From a virus (lineage: Duplodnaviria; Heunggongvirae; Uroviricota; Caudoviricetes), in IMG/VR virus record IMGVR_UViG_2579778631_000021: a stretch of DNA of 37,649 bases; one strand, given 5' to 3'. Every line of letters starts with the position of its first letter. Within the stretch, counting starts at the first letter, position 1. The position numbers and the translations under genes were made by a program. The notes beneath the pieces were generated by a model. That model was not told the origin of the DNA, did not search any database, and was given only the letters and a program-made list of their open reading frames with translations. Positions 1,419 through 25,133 of the stretch are shown here, piece by piece.

Positions 1419-2489
1419 TTATTTGATTTCAATTTTGTCCCACTCCCTGCCTCTGTCATCACGATACTGTGATGCCATGGTGTCCGACTTATGCCCGAGA
1501 AGATGTTGAGCAAACTTATCGCTTATCTGCTTCTCATAGAGTCTTGCAGACAAACTGCGCAACTCGTGAAAGGTAGGCGGATCCCCTTCGAAGGAAAGAC
1601 CTGATGCTTTTCGTGCGCGCATAAAATACCTTGATACTGTGCCGGATGAAAGCGGTTCACGACGAGTAGATGCAATTATGGTTTCTCCGCCAAGAATCTC
1701 TTTGCATTTATCAAGTGTTTCCTTCATTGATATCCCAAGAGCATCAACATGCAATGTTGTTGGGATGGCAATTTTTACGCCGGTTTTGCTTTGCTCGACA
1801 TAAAGATAGCCATCTACGATATCAGACCACTTCATTTCGCATAAATCACCAACTCGCTGCCCGGTAACAACAGCCAGTTCCATTGCAAGTCTAAGCCAAC
1901 ATGGTGATGATTCTGCTGCTTGATAAATTTTCAGGTATTCGTCAGCCGTAAGTCTTGATCTCCTTACCTCTGATTTTGCTGCGCGAGTGGCAGCGACCGG
2001 GTTTGTTGTTATATGGCCTTCAGCTATTGCCTCTCGGAATGCATCGCTCAGTGTTGATCTGATTAACTTGGCTGACGCCGCCTTGCCCTCGTCTATGTAT
2101 CCATTGAGCATTGCCGCAATTTCTTTTGTGGTGATGTCTTCAAGTGGAGCATCAGGCAGACCCCTCCTTATTGCTTTAATTTTGCTCATGTAATTTATGA
2201 GTGTCTTCTGCTTGATTCCTCTGCTGGCGAGGATTTTTTCGTAGCGATCAAGCCATGAATGTAACGTAACAGAATTATCACTGTTGATTCTCGCTGTCAG
2301 AGGCTTGTGTTTGTGTCCTGAAAATAACTCAATGTTGGCCTGTATAGCTTCAGTGATTGCGATTCGCCTGTCTCGGCCTAATCCAAACTCTTTACCCGTC
2401 CTTGGGTCCCTGTAGCAGTAATATCCATTGTTTCTTATATAAAGGTTAGGGGGTAAATCCCGGCGCTCATGACTTCGCCTTCTTCCCAT
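1419..2489 (-). CDS. int: Tyrosine integrase, lambda Int type
   Basis: 356-aa ORF; N-terminal arm-binding region and C-terminal catalytic motifs (HELRSL...LGH...Y); sequence recalled as essentially lambda Int; adjacent to attL. Confidence 0.95.
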   Translation of the reverse strand: MGRRRSHERRDLPPNLYIRNNGYYCYRDPRTGKEFGLGRDRRIAITEAIQANIELFSGHKHKPLTARINSDNSVTLHSWLDRYEKILASRGIKQKTLINYMSKIKAIRRGLPDAPLEDITTKEIAAMLNGYIDEGKAASAKLIRSTLSDAFREAIAEGHITTNPVAATRAAKSEVRRSRLTADEYLKIYQAAESSPCWLRLAMELAVVTGQRVGDLCEMKWSDIVDGYLYVEQSKTGVKIAIPTTLHVDALGISMKETLDKCKEILGGETIIASTRREPLSSGTVSRYFMRARKASGLSFEGDPPTFHELRSLSARLYEKQISDKFAQHLLGHKSDTMASQYRDDRGREWDKIEIK

Positions 2490-2685
2490 TTCTGATCCTC
2501 TTCAAAAGGCTACCTGTTACTGGTCGATTTAAGTCAACCTTTACCGCTGATTCGTGGAACAGATACTCTCTTCCATCCTTAACCGGAGGAGGGAATATCC
2601 TGCATTCGCGCACCCATCGACGAACTGTTTCAAGGCTTCTTGGGCGCCGCTGGCGTGCGTTCCACTCCTGAAGTGTTAAGTACAT
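2467..2685 (-). CDS. xis: Excisionase Xis
   Basis: 72-aa ORF MYLTLQEWNARQRRPRSLETVRRW... overlapping int start, as in lambda. Confidence 0.9.
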   Translation of the reverse strand: MYLTLQEWNARQRRPRSLETVRRWVRECRIFPPPVKDGREYLFHESAVKVDLNRPVTGSLLKRIRNGKKAKS

Positions 2686-2712
2686 CGCAAAGTCTCCGCA
2701 ATTACACGCAAG

Positions 2713-2732
2713 AAAAAACCGCCATCAGGCGG
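2713..2732 (-). terminator. Hairpin CCGCC-ATCA-GGCGG with T-run on minus strand, between small ORF and xis
   Basis: 5-bp GC stem, 4-nt loop, followed on minus strand by TTTTTTCT; stop codon of upstream ORF lies in the loop. Confidence 0.4.
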
Positions 2733-2892
2733 CTTGGTGTTCTTTCAGTTCTTCAATTCGAATATTGGTTACGTCTGCATGTGCTATCTGCGCCCATATC
2801 ATCCAGTGGTCATAGCAGTCGTTGATGTTCTCTGCTTCGATAACTCTGTTGAATGGCTCTCCATTCCATTCACCTGTCACCCGGAAGTGCAT
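2725..2892 (-). CDS. Small hypothetical protein (55 aa), lambda orf55-like position
   Basis: ATG with GGAG SD 8 nt upstream; translation MHFRVTGEWNGEPFNRVIEAENINDCYDHWMIWAQIAHADVTNIRIEELKEHQAA; below the 60-aa cutoff of the ORF track. Confidence 0.5.
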   Translation of the reverse strand: MHFRVTGEWNGEPFNRVIEAENINDCYDHWMIWAQIAHADVTNIRIEELKEHQAA

Positions 2893-5306: not shown

Positions 5307-5603
5307 TCAGTCATTACTGATAGCGCCATAGCGTGAGCGGTAATTACGCAGGCGCGGGTCGATATATTCAGGGAAGTGGGTATATGTGGCTTTGCGGAAT
5401 GGTCGGATTGATGTCTGGTAAATTCGCTCGCGTTCTTCTTTCTCTGCAAGCCATATACAATGGCGAAATTCCTTTTCCTCTTTCGTTTCCTGCGGTAGCG
5501 ACATTATCAGGTCGTAGTTTTTCCTGAATTTATCCAGCACCTCCGATACGGAATTGCCGGAACAGCGGCGCGCGTCATCCGCACCATACAAAGGCGCTGG
5601 CAT
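5307..5603 (-). CDS. Hypothetical phage protein (98 aa)
   Basis: ATG with GGAG SD; basic C-terminus. Confidence 0.45.
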
Positions 5604-5619: not shown

Positions 5620-6168
5620 TTATTTAGCTAACTTTTTCCAGATCGCTGAAACGTATTTGGCTTGGTGGATGGCATCATCAAGCGCGTTGTGGCGAGTTCC
5701 TTTGAATGGCATATCTCGCTTAGGGTCGAATCCTATTACCTTTCCAAGCTCGACGATTGTTCTTACGTCGCGGTCATTCCACCACTGCCACGGAACTGGC
5801 TGCCCTGTCAGCGAATAACTGTTGCGGAGAATAACGCAGTCAAATGATGCTCCATTCCCCAAAACCTGAACGAATTTGTGGTTAGCGTTCTTTATGATGA
5901 ATTCAGATAACCATGAAAGAGCCGTTGAAAGCTCTTGAGTGTTGCTGGTTAGCGATTTTCTGGCTTCTTCACTCTGTTCCATCCACCATAAAATCGTTGA
6001 AGCGTCAGGACGCGCCCGATATCGCATTGATGACTCAAGCGAGATATTTACCGAGAACTCTTCTCCTGTTTCTCCGGTATTCGGGTCAAAGAATACTGCC
6101 CCAATAGAAATAACTGGCGCGTATGGCCCGTTGCCCATTGTTTCAAGGTCAACCATTAAGTGATTCAT
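5620..6168 (-). CDS. DEDDh-type 3'-5' exonuclease (DnaQ-like fold)
   Basis: N-terminal MVDLETMG (Exo I motif), internal and C-terminal acidic/His motifs (HNALDDA). Confidence 0.7.
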   Translation of the reverse strand: MNHLMVDLETMGNGPYAPVISIGAVFFDPNTGETGEEFSVNISLESSMRYRARPDASTILWWMEQSEEARKSLTSNTQELSTALSWLSEFIIKNANHKFVQVLGNGASFDCVILRNSYSLTGQPVPWQWWNDRDVRTIVELGKVIGFDPKRDMPFKGTRHNALDDAIHQAKYVSAIWKKLAK

Positions 6169-6176
6169 GTAAGTCC

Positions 6177-6692
6177 TTAAATTGCGTGAATAGCGTGACG
6201 AGGGAAGGGGAGAGTTACTGGTGCAAAGGGGATTTCATCGTCGAAGTTCATAGGTGGTTCGCCGTAATTCCCATGCTGCTGAGATTGCTGTCTTTGTTGC
6301 TGGCCGTTATTTCGCTGAGGTGAAGACTGTTCATTGCTTCCTTGCTTGCCACCAAGCATTTGCATGGCTCCACCAACGCCCACGATAACTTCTGTAGTGA
6401 ACCGATCCTGTCCGCTTTGATCCTGCCATTTTCTTGTCCGCAATTTGCCTTCAAGATAAACCTCTGAGCCTTTTCGCAGATATTCGCTGGCAATTTCTGC
6501 CAGTTTCCCGCTCATTACCACACGGTGCCACTCCGTCTGCTCCTTTTGCTCTCCAGTTTGCTTATCACGCCATTGTTCTGACGTAGCAACTGTAAGGTTT
6601 GCAAATGCCGTTCCTGATGGTGAATATCTGATTTCTGGATCATGCCCAAGGCGACCAATAATGATCACCTTATTTACGCCTCTGCTTGCCAT
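6177..6692 (-). CDS. ssb: Single-stranded DNA-binding protein
   Basis: OB-fold N-terminus [23 protein letters not shown]..., Gly/Gln-rich linker, acidic DDEIPF tail motif. Confidence 0.9.
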
Positions 6693-7400
6693 TTATGCCG
6701 CCTGTTTTAGCTCGTTAACTCTGATGTTCATTACCTGAACGCATTTAGCCTGCGCCTCCTCGTTTCCAGCCATTAATTGCCAGTCACGCTGATAACGCTC
6801 GATGAGTTTTTTCTTGTCAGTTTCTGTTGACGCATAATCGCTGAAGTCTTTCAGGATTTGTTCGCAGTCAACCGATGGAGATTTCTGGTTGGTATTTTCT
6901 GGTGATGGTTTGTTATCTGATGCTGGGATTGCCCATCCCGGCAGTGATGGAGGGAGCCAGTAAAATCCTGTTCCATCCTTCAGTTTTGCCCTGTGCCACC
7001 CCTGCTTTTTATCGAGAGATGTTTGTGCGAAACCTTCCTCAAGGTTATACAGATACCGACCGATTCCCCACTGAACGGCAGCGCGCTTCATTGCACCGGA
7101 ACGACCACCTTTGACGGCTTCTACCTGCGTGTTTTCAGCAGCATCCCATTTGGTTACCCATTCGGAATCAATCTTTATTGATATGCCGCATTCAACGCCG
7201 CCGTTGTTGGGAATATCGCGGTATTCATTGCGCCATCCTGCTTTGCCGCAAACATCGTCCAGACGTTTCATGATTGCCCGGTTCGTGACATAAGCCAGCA
7301 CCATAGCCCACACTTTGCCATCGCGTGTTTTACCGCTTTGCTGTATTCGCCATTCGATATCTTCAGGGCTGAATGGCTCATCGAATTTATTCAAATCCAT
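6693..7400 (-). CDS. Rad52-like single-strand annealing protein (Sak-type recombinase)
   Basis: 235-aa ORF directly upstream of ssb; recalled resemblance to phage Rad52/22 family annealases; GAGG SD. Confidence 0.6.
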   Translation of the reverse strand: MDLNKFDEPFSPEDIEWRIQQSGKTRDGKVWAMVLAYVTNRAIMKRLDDVCGKAGWRNEYRDIPNNGGVECGISIKIDSEWVTKWDAAENTQVEAVKGGRSGAMKRAAVQWGIGRYLYNLEEGFAQTSLDKKQGWHRAKLKDGTGFYWLPPSLPGWAIPASDNKPSPENTNQKSPSVDCEQILKDFSDYASTETDKKKLIERYQRDWQLMAGNEEAQAKCVQVMNIRVNELKQAA

Positions 7401-7487
7401 AATTCACCTCAGAATGGACACGGCCCAAGGAAATAACGCTGATTTAATACTTCAGTCTTTGCCGCATTTAAAAATACGCGAACACCT

Positions 7488-7658
7488 TCACGATCTCCCT
7501 TCTGGCGATACATTAACGCCTGCTGCGTGTACATGCGTCTCTGTAACTTGCTCTCCTTCACTGTGGTTGCAAGTGACATGAATATCTCCTTCGTTACCGA
7601 TTAATTCTTTCATCTGACGAATGAATTCTTCGTCTGACCAGTTATCTGTAAAACTCAT
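7488..7658 (-). CDS. Small hypothetical protein (56 aa), acidic
   Basis: Start MSFTDNWSDEEF; ATG overlaps stop of upstream small ORF (ATGA). Confidence 0.35.
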   Translation of the reverse strand: MSFTDNWSDEEFIRQMKELIGNEGDIHVTCNHSEGEQVTETHVHAAGVNVSPEGRS

Positions 7659-7807
7659 TTCCTGCGATACCACGGAAGGTTGATAGCTGATTTCATCGCT
7701 TTATTTGCTTCAAGCCACATTTTTGAATCACCAATAAATCTGGCTATTACTGCTTTGTTCTGTGCAGCTCGAAGCATCTGGTGATTAATGGCTATTTCAT
7801 TGCGCAT
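7655..7807 (-). CDS. Small hypothetical protein (50 aa)
   Basis: MRNEIAINHQMLRAAQNKAVIARFIGDSKMWLEANKAMKSAINLPWYRRK; GAGG SD; below ORF-track cutoff. Confidence 0.3.
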   Translation of the reverse strand: MRNEIAINHQMLRAAQNKAVIARFIGDSKMWLEANKAMKSAINLPWYRRK

Positions 7808-7923
7808 AATAAGACCTCAACTCTTTTCCATCCGTCACGTAATTTACGGGTGATTCGTTCAAGTAAAGATTCATTTAGTTGGAAGGCACCCATGCGAGCG
7901 CCTCCCGCGATTGCGTAAATCAT
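7792..7923 (-). CDS. Small hypothetical protein (43 aa)
   Basis: MIYAIAGGARMGAFQLNESLLERITRKLRDGWKRVEVLLCAMK; AAGGAA SD; below ORF-track cutoff. Confidence 0.25.
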   Translation of the reverse strand: MIYAIAGGARMGAFQLNESLLERITRKLRDGWKRVEVLLCAMK

Positions 7924-7947
7924 GGGTGGTTCCTTATGTTGGTTTTA

Positions 7948-8916
7948 TTAGTAGGTTATTTTTGTTGCGAATACTTCGCCTTTTACGATGGCTGTTATGA
8001 TATTTTTAGCAACATCTTCTGATGCACCAACCTTGATAAGGTCAGCAAGTATTTTGTTATTCACTTCTTTCCGGTGAGCTTTATCCTTTGCTCTACGCTC
8101 TTCTTCGTCCTTGATTCTTTTTTCTTCTGCTATTCTGGCTTGCTCTTTTGCTTCAGCCTCGCGACGGATTCGTTCAGCCTCCTCCTGTGCTTTTCTGCGT
8201 TCTGCTTCAATTGCTGCCTGCTTTTCTCTTTCAGCTCGTTCTGCTGCCTCTTTTGCTTCGCGCTGTGCTCGTTGCTCGGCTTCAATGCGTTCACGCTCTG
8301 CACGTTCTGCTGCGGCCTTAGCTTCTGCTTCTCGCCTTGCTGCTGCTTCAATTTCGGCTTTTGCCTTTGCTTCGGCTTCTGCTCTGGCTTTCTCTTCAGC
8401 TTCTCTTTTTAAGCGTTCTTCATGCTCTCGCTTTTCCTGCTCCGCTTTGAGTCTTGCCTCTTCTCTTTGGCGGTCAAATTCGCGATCCATCAAAATAGCT
8501 ATTTCATGGTCAGACTCAATTTGCTTTGCGAGAGCTTCAGCTTCTGCCTTAGCTTCTTCTTCGGCTTTAATCCGCGCCTGTTCTTCCTCATAATCAGTAA
8601 GAGGCTGGCGCGCCTTGGCTTTCAGCTCATCAAGGCGATCGCGCACTGTCTTGCGGTTGGCATCAATTAGCTTTGGAATTTCCTTCAGTTCAGCAACAAG
8701 GTCTTTGCCAAGACCATCGAGATATGTTTTCGTCTGCGCAACTTTATACGCCAGAGAAGCGATCTCCTTTCTGCCCTTTGCCGTTGTGATATCAGGCACA
8801 AAGGACATAACTTCACGTTCAACCTTTTGAAGGATTTCTTCAATCTGGTCGGCAGACTGAAATACAGTCATTGCATTTGCTTTTTCAATAACAACTAAAT
8901 CTGTTACTTCACTCAT
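7948..8916 (-). CDS. Phage protein with long E/A/K/R-rich coiled-coil low-complexity region
   Basis: 322-aa ORF, strong GGAGGA SD; residues about 110-290 are EAKR repeats; function unknown. Confidence 0.5.
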   Translation of the reverse strand: MSEVTDLVVIEKANAMTVFQSADQIEEILQKVEREVMSFVPDITTAKGRKEIASLAYKVAQTKTYLDGLGKDLVAELKEIPKLIDANRKTVRDRLDELKAKARQPLTDYEEEQARIKAEEEAKAEAEALAKQIESDHEIAILMDREFDRQREEARLKAEQEKREHEERLKREAEEKARAEAEAKAKAEIEAAARREAEAKAAAERAERERIEAEQRAQREAKEAAERAEREKQAAIEAERRKAQEEAERIRREAEAKEQARIAEEKRIKDEEERRAKDKAHRKEVNNKILADLIKVGASEDVAKNIITAIVKGEVFATKITY

Positions 8917-8928
8917 ATATCCTCCGTC

Positions 8929-8956
8929 AAAAAATTGCCCTCACACTGGAGGGCAA
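8929..8956 (-). terminator. Rho-independent terminator on minus strand (tL1-like) upstream of recombination genes
   Basis: 8-bp stem TTGCCCTC/GAGGGCAA, 6-nt loop, followed on minus strand by 6-7 T; abuts SD of 322-aa gene. Confidence 0.5.
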
Positions 8957-9168: not shown

Positions 9169-9750
9169 ATGAACAACTCATGGTGGCAGGAACTAATGCA
9201 TTTTTTCCTGCAAGGAATGACACTTAAACAGTTGATTCATATGCTAATCATCCTAATCATATTGATTATTGTTATGCCTGTAAGCGTAAAAGAATGGATA
9301 AACCTGCATAATCCAGAAATCCTTCCTCATTACTGGATGTATTACATCCTGTTGTTTTGCGTTAGCTATGTGCTTAACGGCGTTGTTAATTCCGCTTATC
9401 ACGCTGTGACTGAAAGAATTGAGATATTCGCTGCTCAGAAGCGCAAATCTAAAGAAGAGAAATACGTGCAAGATTTGTTTGATTCGTTAACTCTTGGAGA
9501 AAGAGCGTATTTGGCATTCGCTGTAGCCGCTAATAACCAGCTAAAGACAGAAAAGGGAAGCCCTGAAGCAATCTCATTGCTCGAAAAAGGGCTTCTTATT
9601 CGGGTACCTTCTGCTACTGGATATCCTGAAATCGACCGTTTTGTTATCCCGGAACGCTATAGAAATGAGTGCTACATTAGGTTTGCTGGGAAGAAAGACA
9701 GTCTTATGGATGAACTTATCGCTCAGGATAAGCATGGCAAAAACAAGTAA
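9169..9750 (+). CDS. SieB-like superinfection exclusion membrane protein
   Basis: 193-aa ORF on opposite strand to pL operon, AT-rich, N-terminal hydrophobic segments; position and size as for lambdoid sieB; recalled similarity only. Confidence 0.45.
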   Translation: MNNSWWQELMHFFLQGMTLKQLIHMLIILIILIIVMPVSVKEWINLHNPEILPHYWMYYILLFCVSYVLNGVVNSAYHAVTERIEIFAAQKRKSKEEKYVQDLFDSLTLGERAYLAFAVAANNQLKTEKGSPEAISLLEKGLLIRVPSATGYPEIDRFVIPERYRNECYIRFAGKKDSLMDELIAQDKHGKNK

Positions 9751-9766
9751 TTAGCAAATTAATTTA

Positions 9767-10039
9767 TCATCTCGCCGTCAGTTGTTTTGATTTCCGGTAG
9801 CCTGCCGCGTAAATGGCTACGTTTGGCAGGCAAATACTTCCACTGCATTCATCTGCCTTCTTGCAGCGAAGGCTTCCGAGTGATGCTGCTTTGTCTGCTC
9901 TGACGCAACCAGAGAGCTTTAGCGCAATTTTTCGCGCCAGTCGCTGTTCTTGCATTGCCTGCTCACGTTGAGCCTGTCTGCGTGCTCTGCGGCGATTTCT
10001 GGCGTTATCGTCAGCCAGATATGTAATGACTACTGCCAT
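9767..10039 (-). CDS. N-like transcription antiterminator
   Basis: First gene downstream of pL and nutL; arginine-rich motif NARNRRRARRQAQREQ near N-terminus; GGAGG SD. Confidence 0.6.
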   Translation of the reverse strand: MAVVITYLADDNARNRRRARRQAQREQAMQEQRLARKIALKLSGCVRADKAASLGSLRCKKADECSGSICLPNVAIYAAGYRKSKQLTAR

Positions 10040-10792: not shown

Positions 10793-11509
10793 TCAAACCA
10801 GCCTTAGTTTTGTCTCAATTGCAACGCCTATAATCTTGCAGTTTCCATTGATTGGCACGAGAGGCCATGCAGGATTAAGTCCCTTGAGGTATTTATTTCC
10901 GCCGTCGATTATCAGCTTCTTGAATGTTGCTTCGTTAGAGTCAGAAAGTTTTGCTATGACCAAGCTGCCGTTGATCGCCTCCCTTCCGGTATCGAAAAGA
11001 ACGAATGTTCCCTCTGGAATGCTTAACCCAACCGGTGCCGTCATTGAATCACCTTCCACTTTAAGCCAGAACGCATTACCTTGAATATGCGCGTCAGACT
11101 CAAGCCAAACATCTATGTCTTTAATGGTGTATGGTTCGCATGCTTCACACCACGAGCCAGCCTGGATACTGCTTAACACCGGATACCTCTTTCCTGCTCT
11201 GTATTCCCCTGCATACCTTACGTTGGCATCGCTCTTAAGGCTTTCTGCCTGTTCTGCAACCTTGGCAGCAATTGACTGGCTAAAATCAGCAATTGAGACT
11301 TGCAACAATCGTGCAAAACCAGATGCAACCTCAACGTTTAGCGCGTTTCTGCCATTAAGATAATGCCCTACCGCTCCTTGGGTGATACCCAGTTCATCAG
11401 CGATTGAGTATTGGGTTATTCCCAATTCTTTCTTTTTTGACTCATACAAAGCCTTAAGACGCTTAGCGTCTTCGAGCTGTTCTGTCGTCAGTGATTTTTT
11501 ATTTTCCAT
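10793..11509 (-). CDS. cI: CI repressor (HTH N-terminus, S24 LexA-like autocleavage C-terminus)
   Basis: 238 aa; N-terminus MENKKSLTTEQLEDAKRLKALYESKKKELGITQ resembles lambda cI; C-terminal GDSM and FKKL catalytic Ser/Lys motifs. Confidence 0.9.
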   Translation of the reverse strand: MENKKSLTTEQLEDAKRLKALYESKKKELGITQYSIADELGITQGAVGHYLNGRNALNVEVASGFARLLQVSIADFSQSIAAKVAEQAESLKSDANVRYAGEYRAGKRYPVLSSIQAGSWCEACEPYTIKDIDVWLESDAHIQGNAFWLKVEGDSMTAPVGLSIPEGTFVLFDTGREAINGSLVIAKLSDSNEATFKKLIIDGGNKYLKGLNPAWPLVPINGNCKIIGVAIETKLRLV

Positions 11510-22967: not shown

Positions 22968-25133
22968 ATGGCCGACGAAAACAGACTCAATTCCATTCTG
23001 TGTAAGTTTGACGCAGACTGGATGGCGAGCGATGAAGCCAGAACCGAGGCGACAAATGACCTGTATTTTAGCCGAGTGTCGCAATGGGATGACTGGCTAT
23101 CAAACTACACCACCCTGCAATATCGCGGACAATTCGATGTTGTTCGCCCGGTGGTCAGGAAACTGGTCGCAGAGATGCGCCGGAACCCTATCGACGTTCT
23201 CTTCCGACCCAAAGACGGCGCTAATCATGATGCAGCCGATGTGTTGATGGGGATGTATCGTACTGATATGCGCCATAACACGGCAAAGATTGCCGTTAAC
23301 GTTGGCGTTCGTGAGCAGATAGAGTCCGGCGTTGGTGCATGGCGTCTGGTCACACAGTACGAAGACAACGACCCAACAAGCAACAATCAGGTAATCAGAC
23401 GCCTGCCAATTCATGAAGCCTGCTCACACGTCATATGGGACGCCAACAGCAAGCAGATGGATAAGAGCGACGCTAAGCACTGCACGGTGATTAACGCCTT
23501 GTCGCGCAATGGCTGGAAAGAGTTCGCAGAGGATTACGGTATTGATCCGGACACCTTGCCATCTTTCCAGAATCCGAACGATACATGGCTGTTTCCGTGG
23601 GTATCGAATGATGTCGTCTACGTCGCTGAGTATTACGAGGTCGAAGAGAAGAAAGAGAAGGTCTTCATCTACCGCGACCCGCTGACAGGTGAGCCGGTCA
23701 GCTATTACCAGCAGGATATCAAAGACGTCATCGACGACCTGGCTAATCGTGGATTCATTAAGGTAGCAGAGCGTAAGGTCAAGCGTCGGCGTGTGTATAA
23801 GTCGATCATCACCTGCACGCAGATACTGAAAGACCGCGAGAAGATAGCCGGAGAGCATATTCCAATCGTTCCAGTGTATGGCGAATGGTCATTCGCTGGT
23901 GACAAGGAGTGCTACGAAGGAGTGGTAAGGCTGACGAAAGACGGTCAGCGCCTTCGTAACATGATCATGTCGTTCAACGCCGATATCGTTGCTCGTTCAC
24001 CGAAGAAGAAACCGACCTTCTTCCCTGAGCAAGTCGAAGGCTACGAATACATGTACGGTGGAAATGATGACTATCCGTACTATCTGCAGAACAGGACCGA
24101 TGAAAACGGTAACGACCTGCCGATTGGTCCAATCTCCTACATGGAAAACCCTGAAGTGCCGCAAGCCAACGCTTACATGCTTGAGGCTGCCACCAACGCA
24201 GTGAAAGAGGTGGCTAGTCTTGGCGTGGATGCGCAGGCGGCAAATGGTCAGGTCGCTTTCGATACCGTCAATCAACTGAACATGCGGGCAGACCTTGAGA
24301 CATACGTGTTTCAGGATAACCTGGCTACCGCAATGCGACGTGATGGCGAGATTTATGCCTCAATGGTCAACGATATTTATGACGTTCCTCGTCATGTAAC
24401 GCTGACACTTGAAGATGGAAGCGAGAAAGACGTTCAACTCTATGCGCAAGTTGTCGATTACCAGTCCGGCAATGTGGTCACACTCAACGACATTCGTGGT
24501 CGATATGAGTGCTATACAGACGTTGGGCCATCCTTCCAGAGTATGAAGGAACAGAACCGCGCAGAGATTCAGGAGTTGCTCACCAAGGTTCCGCAAGGTA
24601 CTCCAGAGTTCCAGATGCTGATGCTGCAATACTTCACGCTGCTTGACGGTAAAGGCGTCGAGATGATGCGAGAGTACGCGAACAAGCAACTGGTAATGAT
24701 GGGGCTGAAGAAACCAGAAACACCTGAAGAGATGGAGATGGTGCAACAGGCACAACAACAGCCGCAGCAGCCATCAGCAGAGCAAATTCAGGCGCAGGGT
24801 ATCCTTCTGCAAGGTCAGGCTGAATTGCTCAAGGCAGAGAACCAACAGGCGCAGATTCAGGTTGAAGCTGCCAAGGTTGAAGCTCAAAACCAACTCAACG
24901 CCGCGAAGATTGCAGAAATCTTCAACAATATGGATCTCGACAAGCAGGCAGAACTGCGTGAGTACCTCAAGCTCGTAGGTCAATTCCAGCAACAGCGCAG
25001 CAAAGATGCTCGTGCTAACGCTGAGCTGCTTCTTAAAGATGCAGACCAGACTCATTCACAACGCATGGATTTCGCGAATCTTATGCGTCAAGTTCAAATC
25101 CCCTCCGGCGGAGTAGCCGAGACACCTCAATAA
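22968..25133 (+). CDS. Portal protein (P22 gp1-like)
   Basis: 721 aa, [18 protein letters not shown]...; Q-rich C-terminal barrel region; recalled near-collinear with P22 portal. Confidence 0.95.

Follow-up and report, generated by a model that had tools for sequence, protein, structure and literature searches.

Two textbook genes, cIII and kil, and two small catalogued genes stand in a row upstream of a phage annealase gene

The micro-gene cluster between the EAKR-rich protein gene and the annealase gene is genuine but unremarkable. It comprises four consecutive small genes instead of three: the two textbook genes cIII and kil, followed by two small genes that are already catalogued, here called ORF3 and ORF4 (Table 1). 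The order on the minus strand of the window, which is the whole stretch of 37,649 nucleotides analysed, is from 5' to 3' EAKR, cIII, kil, ORF3, ORF4 and annealase. An earlier note on this DNA had reported a cluster of three micro-ORFs of 43, 50 and 56 aa between the EAKR protein and the annealase. All three are found on the minus strand at the positions listed in Table 1. By homology, the 43-aa ORF is CIII and the 50-aa ORF is Kil. The note missed the fourth gene; the interval 7401-7487, which it left unexplained, belongs to ORF4. With the four genes as described here, the cluster very probably lies within the early left operon, transcribed from pL under N antitermination, of a P22-like lambdoid prophage, in the middle or promoter-distal part. 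ORFs of at least 25 aa are frequent by chance (70 per 4.5 kb here), so the reality of the cluster genes rests on homology and selection and not on the openness of the frames.

Table 1. Positions of the cluster genes, their translation signals and the neighbouring features in the window
Feature	Positions	Strand	Assignment or basis
Integrase	1419..2489		
Abc2	5307..5603		
Annealase, Rad52/Rad22-type single-strand annealing protein (235 aa)	6693..7400	minus	Pfam Rad52_Rad22 5e-26; phrog_1097
ORF4 stop TGA	7411..7409	minus	runs into annealase SD
Annealase SD GAGGTG	7410..7405	minus	
ORF4 (56 aa)	7409..7579	minus	HK97 gp42 / Sf6 gp29 family
ORF4 SD GAAGGAG	7592..7586	minus	
ORF3 (56 aa counted from ATG)	7488..7658	minus	HK97 gp42.1 / Sf6 gp30 family
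ATGA overlap (kil stop TGA and ORF3 start ATG)	7655..7658	minus	direct sequence reading
kil (50 aa)	7655..7807	minus	Kil homologue
kil SD GAGG	7818..7815	minus	
cIII (43 aa)	7792..7923	minus	CIII homologue
cIII SD AAGGA	7935..7931	minus	
EAKR-rich protein (322 aa)	7948..8916	minus	
Terminator-like hairpin upstream of EAKR gene	8935..8956	minus	terminator scan; position of Sf6 tL2A
SieB	9169..9750	opposite to cluster	
N antiterminator homologue	9767..10039		
CI-like repressor	10793..11509		

Besides the genes in Table 1, the window also encodes Ead/Ea22, an Rv2179c-like exonuclease, SSB and a tailspike with a P22 head-binding domain. The hairpin upstream of the EAKR gene sits at the position of Sf6 tL2A, which implies expression of the cluster from pL under N antitermination. 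After induction or infection, N-antiterminated transcripts from pL would pass this tL-like hairpin and continue into EAKR, cIII, kil, ORF3, ORF4, annealase, ssb, exonuclease and abc2. The promoter scan gives no internal promoter above the chance rate, and the Rfam scan of the whole window gives no RNA family.

CIII matches the Pfam model Lambda_CIII (PF02061) with 56 bits, well above the gathering cut-off of 25.7 (E=4e-15), and phrog_550 with 1.6e-20. In the central 17 residues, ESLLERITRKLRDGWKR, there is no difference from lambda CIII. This central amphipathic-helix region is the active part of CIII. The RefSeq product name of the gene is 'protease FtsH-inhibitory lysogeny factor CIII'. Kil matches Lambda_Kil (PF06301) with 72.6 bits (cut-off 27.6, E=1.7e-20), with all 31 profile positions covered, and phrog_2055 with 1.2e-35. 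The product is 100% identical to the annotated Kil of HK97 and 47% identical to lambda Kil. NCBIfam gives no significant match for any of the four ORFs. Among related loci, drawn from IMG/VR and from phage records, 53/53 have an intact cIII and 109/109 an intact kil. The variants of cIII include 9 synonymous and 4 nonsynonymous changes, while 23% synonymous is expected (P=6e-4), and those of kil include 23 synonymous and 14 nonsynonymous changes, with 26/37 of them at third codon positions (P=3e-8). No such synonymous signal is seen in the two remaining same-strand frames across cIII and kil. Both genes are under purifying selection. By homology to lambda, CIII would competitively inhibit the host protease FtsH, so that CII is stabilised and lysogeny is favoured. 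Lambda Kil blocks FtsZ-ring assembly (PMC3961180), and the Kil of the window would likewise transiently block FtsZ-ring assembly and cell division after induction.

The four starts are quite different in the strength of their ribosome-binding sites. For each start, the 20 nt in front of it were paired with the 16S rRNA tail, and the pairing energy was ranked against all 1432 ATGs of the window. ORF4 has the best site of the cluster, at -8.8 kcal/mol with a spacer of 5 nt (top 2% of ATGs). The kil site scores -6.6 kcal/mol with a spacer of 5 nt (top 6%) and the cIII site -6.2 kcal/mol with a spacer of 6 nt (top 8%). At the ORF3 start, AGGA abuts the ATG with a spacer of 0-1 nt and scores -4.3 kcal/mol (top 21%); ORF3 is without a usable SD. 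The suggestion that each of the three originally listed ORFs has its own SD is thus right for cIII and kil and wrong for ORF3. Translational coupling through two ATGA-type overlaps had also been proposed. One such overlap is present, between the kil stop and the ORF3 start, while the overlap of cIII with kil spans 16 nt (7792..7807). ORF3 shares its last 92 nt with ORF4 in the +1 frame, and the SD of ORF4 is located inside codons 22-24 of ORF3. From the end of ORF4 to the annealase ATG there are 8 nt.

The gene order and the overlaps are read directly, and it is from them that we infer coupling between the cluster genes. cIII and kil would each initiate from their own SD, and the two may be coupled because the kil start lies inside the cIII end. 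Ribosomes finishing kil at the UGA would restart at the overlapping AUG of ORF3 by termination-reinitiation, if ORF3 is made at all. Initiation of ORF4 would be independent, from its strong SD. Termination of ORF4 within the annealase SD probably couples annealase translation to ORF4.

Of the two genes with no assigned function, ORF4 is the better supported. It makes a full-length match to the phrog_1723 family including the ...FLGxxPF end (E=4.5e-34), and it is intact as a 56-62-aa ORF in 222/223 loci, which were collected with three different family members as queries. Variants were counted as differences between the two common alleles and among the rarer variants. In the overlap with ORF3, 20/28 are synonymous in the ORF4 frame and 23 fall at the third codon position (P=5.6e-9), and in the ORF4-only part 20/30 are synonymous (P=1e-6). 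ORF4 is under purifying selection. When 1.84 billion representative proteins are searched with a profile, the family comes to only about 17 clusters at 50% identity; their members have 54-60 aa and without exception end in PF, in nearly every case as [YF]FLGxxPF. Residues P55 and F56 are invariant. The AF2 model (pLDDT 87.5) shows a helical hairpin (H7-27 and H30-49) and then a flexible, less ordered tail of 7 residues. In a fold search against the PDB this model gives generic helical hairpins only, none at E<=0.001, and the PDB sequence search gives no meaningful match.

The annealase gene follows ORF4 at a distance of 7-16 nt in 223/223 loci. The annealases were split by N-terminal sequence, and for each type a single representative was searched against Pfam; the exception is the common MSKEFY form, which is annotated as P22 Erf-like in HK97. 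The type next to ORF4 is Rad52_Rad22 in 122 loci, ERF in 93, divergent ERF in 6 and AAA_24 / Sak4-like in 2. A C-terminal module of ~57 residues with 14 invariant positions is common to all four types. In this setting the likeliest role of ORF4 is that of an accessory in the phage module for single-strand-annealing recombination. It could instead be a micro-protein of separate function, directed at the host or against its defences, which has the annealase gene as neighbour only through a shared mosaic boundary, a reading that we regard as possible but rather doubtful. Small proteins of early operons are often host-directed, and both main ORF4 alleles combine freely with ERF and Rad52 types of annealase. 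The C-terminal module is also present in P22 Erf, where Arf takes the upstream place of ORF4, which also speaks against a link of ORF4 to recombination. However, the adjacency to the annealase gene holds at every locus and across four core types, the ORF4 stop is embedded in the annealase SD, and the family is never seen elsewhere in the sets examined. This constant adjacency, together with the flexible and invariant ...PF-COOH end, suggests that ORF4 may dock on a recombination protein much as SSB tips do, which bind Sak4 (PMC5928155) and the C-terminal domain of Red-beta (PMC6393309). An SSB-like tip of ORF4 would dock on the ~57-residue module that the four unrelated annealase cores share, or on host SSB-binding proteins; we give this as a lead only and rate it as unlikely. 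The more elaborate proposal makes ORF4 an annealase-module adaptor whose ...PF-COOH tip mimics the SSB tip and would load or regulate the annealase, with ORF3 as an Arf-like partner made by reinitiation after kil. In this complete form it is distinctly unlikely. In HK620, the non-homologous gene hkaM at the ORF4 position is dispensable for oligonucleotide recombineering (PMC5928155). HkaM was considered as an ORF4 homologue and rejected; it is absent among the 60 of 69 tblastn matches listed, consistent with its description as an orphan (PMC5928155). As it is strictly tied to annealase genes, ORF4 is a cheap candidate for a recombineering helper.

ORF3 is less simple, and the two halves of its frame behave differently. 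The match to phrog_2123 (E=4e-40, residues 1-52 over profile positions 1-52 of 52) says no more than that ORF3 is predicted by gene callers in related phages. The first ~26 codons are its own and form the likely functional core, ~7580..7658 (MSFTDNWSDEEFIRQMKELIGNEGDI). Conservation of the three frames in relatives had been named in the earlier note as a check; it is found for cIII and kil and also for the first 26 codons of ORF3, which are intact together with the start in 153/156 loci, but the ORF3 tail is unconstrained. In the overlap with ORF4, 3/28 variants are synonymous in the ORF3 frame vs the 20 in the ORF4 frame, and where ORF4 starts, the variation pattern takes on the ORF4 frame. 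The length of ORF3, 52 or 56 aa, is set by the ORF4 allele. The C-terminal 30 codons of ORF3 are an unconstrained read-through of the 5' part of ORF4.

We think that ORF3 probably makes a functional peptide. If so, only its first ~26-35 residues would matter, made by reinitiation after kil. ORF3 would then be a short acidic Arf-like peptide and the rest of the 56-aa frame an accidental read-through over ORF4. The N-terminus MSFTDNWSDE[ET]FIR.M.E is retained with three different continuations; the first 18-20 residues are kept across these three contexts, one of which is a free-standing 35-aa gene in a RecT module without ORF4. The ATGA junction at the ORF3 start is kept under two upstream genes: in 108 loci the gene is kil, in 46 an unrelated cIII-like one. 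Within the unique 79 nt the third codon position is richest in variants (18/39), and there is a weak, position-consistent match to Arf. The opposite view is that ORF3 encodes no functional peptide and that nothing keeps the frame open but the youth and near-invariance of the sequence. ORF3 would then be at most a translational bridge, in which ribosomes that re-initiate at the kil stop read through the SD and start of ORF4 and tune the translation of ORF4 and the annealase. This agrees with the lack of a usable SD and with a synonymous excess in the unique 79 nt that is not significant (9/39 vs 16% expected, P=0.14), the tail showing no coding signal. Codons 22-26 are fixed by the SD of the downstream gene in all three variants, and the AF2 model has one short helix (residues 9-20) with pLDDT <50 in the tail. 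In many Salmonella phages kil is joined directly to ORF4 by ATGA with no ORF3, and PGAP does not call ORF3 in the closest RefSeq genome. The retention of the N-terminus in three different contexts stands against this view, which we judge possible but rather doubtful. A further reading takes ORF3 and ORF4 as a single 83-aa gene like HK97 gp42.1, either broken by a frameshift into a pseudogene or expressed by programmed +1 frameshifting. It draws on the HK97 GenBank record, in which 2 extra nt fuse both frames (gp42.1, 83 aa), on scattered fused proteins of 81-82 aa in a large protein collection, and on an SD-like GGGAG just upstream of the ORF3 stop. The insertion is, however, private to HK97 (1/223 loci). 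No other net frameshift occurs among 170 aligned loci and no other split match among the matches listed (69 phage records), and the exact 27-mer that bears the insertion occurs in a single IMG/VR contig. Most of the fused proteins stand as singleton clusters (1-4 member sequences), and hardly any two of them are joined at the same point, a scatter that sequencing errors would produce. ORF4 starts from an ATG of its own behind a strong SD and occurs without ORF3, the ORF3 stop differs between ORF4 alleles with no shared slippery codon, and the variation turns to the ORF4 frame exactly where ORF4 begins. Because the insertion is private, the junctions are scattered and no slippery site is shared, the fusion, pseudogene and programmed-frameshift readings are rejected, and a single gene is extremely improbable.

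The cluster is widespread. Over its 581 nt the cluster region shares 99% identity with phage N7 and 94.5% with Sf6, and parts of it are found in 344 phage records. Among 5426 complete E. coli genomes, 2185 (~40%) carry at least part of the cluster and 461 carry at least 80% of it. Sf6 annotates all four as genes 32, 31, 30 and 29, and HK97 annotates cIII, kil, 42.1 and 42; the cluster is also annotated in HK022 and in RefSeq E. coli, where the product names are in agreement. The annotation is inconsistent: PGAP calls ORF4 and not ORF3, N7 annotates ORF3 and not ORF4, and HK97 fuses both. PHROGs 1723 and 2123 are labelled 'recombinase', although their members are 52-58 aa and have no annealase or recombinase domain. 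No experimental basis for this label of phrog_1723 or phrog_2123 was found, and the literature on HK97 gp42.1 and the mEp phage records contained nothing on the small proteins of ORF3 and ORF4. The label is misleading on both of these tiny proteins; any recombination role of ORF3 or ORF4 is something we infer. For annotation, two of the micro-ORFs can be named cIII and kil, and ORF3 needs a cautious entry, as its C-terminal half is not a conserved protein.

The early left operon of lambda has the order N ... cIII-kil-gam-bet-exo, and the operon of the window is arranged likewise as far as kil. Downstream of kil lambda has gam, whereas the window has ORF3. The CIII of lambda, P22 C3 and the CIII of HK97 belong to the same family as the CIII of the window and occupy the same place in the pL operon. 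In lambda, too, the kil start lies within the 3' end of cIII. The CIII of the window is shorter than that of lambda (43 vs 54 aa); lambda CIII ends in ...ILNQPGVPKNGSNTYGYPD and the window CIII in ...VEVLLCAMK, which is of the HK97/HK022 type. Kil follows cIII with an overlap in both phages, of 32 nt in lambda and 16 nt in the window. The conserved core IA.FIGD..M..EA is present in the Kil of the window, which has an N-terminal extension of 8 residues. HK97 gp42 and gp42.1 and Sf6 gp29 and gp30 are near-identical to ORF4 and ORF3 in sequence and arrangement, with the difference that the HK97 record alone fuses the two frames through its 2 extra bases.

The comparison of ORF3 with P22 Arf is more delicate. 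PMC12315714 cites Poteete et al. 1991 for Arf as an accessory recombination function and describes Arf as a non-essential recombination helper of unknown molecular function. ORF3 gives no match to the Pfam Arf model PF17585 even at E<=10, while every P22 Arf homologue in the comparison carries it. The match of ORF3 to the Arf family phrog_2445 is weak (E=0.042), and hhalign against the P22 Arf family gives a probability of 36% (E=3.7e-4) over 17 N-terminal columns only. The N-terminal motif [FW]SDEEFI is common to ORF3 and to Arf, where the start reads FSDEEFI. Both are genes for small acidic peptides between kil and the annealase gene, and both overlap tightly with the upstream neighbour. The P22 order is kil-arf-erf and that of the window is kil-ORF3-ORF4-annealase. 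Arf has 47 aa and abuts erf, whereas ORF4 stands between ORF3 and the annealase, and the C-terminal half of ORF3 reads ORF4 out of frame. ORF4 was also tried as the C-terminal half of P22 Arf (LNLA..E..N vs INLAAE..N) and rejected, with an hhalign probability of 0.1%. By position and by the weak motif match, ORF3 looks like a recombination accessory of the Arf kind rather than a host-takeover gene. The proposal that this is the place of lambdoid host-takeover or regulatory genes such as kil, cIII and gam is borne out by two of the ORFs, which are cIII and kil themselves, and would not extend to ORF3.

ORF4 can be set beside the SSB proteins. ORF4 lacks the OB fold; the motif conserved in its tail, [YF]FLGxxPF, is longer, and the acidic run of SSB tips is mostly missing. 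The resemblance, which is given as a lead, lies in the ends: SSB tips read ...DDDIPF in E. coli and ...NDYPPF in HK620, and the ORF4 family tails end likewise in PF-COOH (...GPCPF, ...GEPPF, ...SELPF, ...ENLPF). ORF4 is always encoded beside an annealase, and in this window beside SSB as well.

The C-terminal end of the annealase looks like a swappable interaction domain. Annealases built on four cores that are unrelated to one another (Rad52_Rad22, ERF, divergent ERF and AAA_24/Sak4-like) share the same module of ~57 residues. The comparison included the window annealase, those of loci L006, L091, L213, L219 and L221, and P22 erf in L004. Within the module, 14 positions are invariant, and identity to the window copy is 34–51%.

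The neighboring phage SSB runs on past the canonical C-terminal tip. Partner binding by SSB normally requires a free ...IPF-COOH, and the SSB of Sf6 and N7 indeed terminates in ...DIPF. In the window, ...FDDEIPF is followed by 15 further residues, and therefore this SSB with its extended tip may behave differently. The HNH-like gene 26, which comes next after the SSB gene in Sf6 and N7, ends with these same 15 residues and is missing from the window. The 15-residue extension is likewise present in another allele of the SSB, that of E. coli NZ_OW968111.

Features in the window and in compared loci
Feature	Location	Strand	Remark
Annealase C-terminal ~57 residues	window 6693..6866	(-)	module common to several annealase cores
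Phage SSB gene	window 6177..6692	(-)	C-terminal end beyond canonical tip
Rv2179c-like 3'-5' exoribonuclease-domain protein	window 5620..6168	(-)	Pfam 1.3e-71
EAKR-rich protein, 322 aa	window 7948..8916	(-)	phrog_1376; Sf6 gp33
56-aa protein labelled CIII in PHROGs	L005 (Salmonella phage SPN9CC) 2302..2472; L224 2334..2504
HK97 gp42.1/gp42 fusion site	L002 (HK97 AF069529) 2502..2753; record positions about 24,860-24,880		two extra bases

The EAKR-rich protein, counterpart of Sf6 gp33 and similar to D3 Orf53, has no Pfam match. Several E. coli genomes carry it under the PGAP name 'cell envelope biogenesis protein TolA', which probably arose as an artefact of low complexity. PHROGs 1723 and 2123 (52–58-aa families; window 7409..7658) are labelled 'recombinase', and RefSeq phage records copy this label. 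Neither family contains a recombinase domain, and the label seems to derive from position alone. The gp42.1 and gp42 frames are fused by two extra bases in the HK97 reference record only, probably a sequencing error of this 1990s record that was then, in all probability, passed on by copying to NC_002167 and IMG/VR.

Upstream of ORF3 (the gp42.1 family) some phages carry the CIII-labelled protein in place of cIII and kil. This protein, MQQFAIAGAASVRPF...KQQGRP, has no Pfam match and shares with CIII only an N-terminal ..AIAG motif. Within the recombination module, the Rv2179c-like gene is flanked by ssb and abc2, a place taken by different genes in Sf6 and N7.
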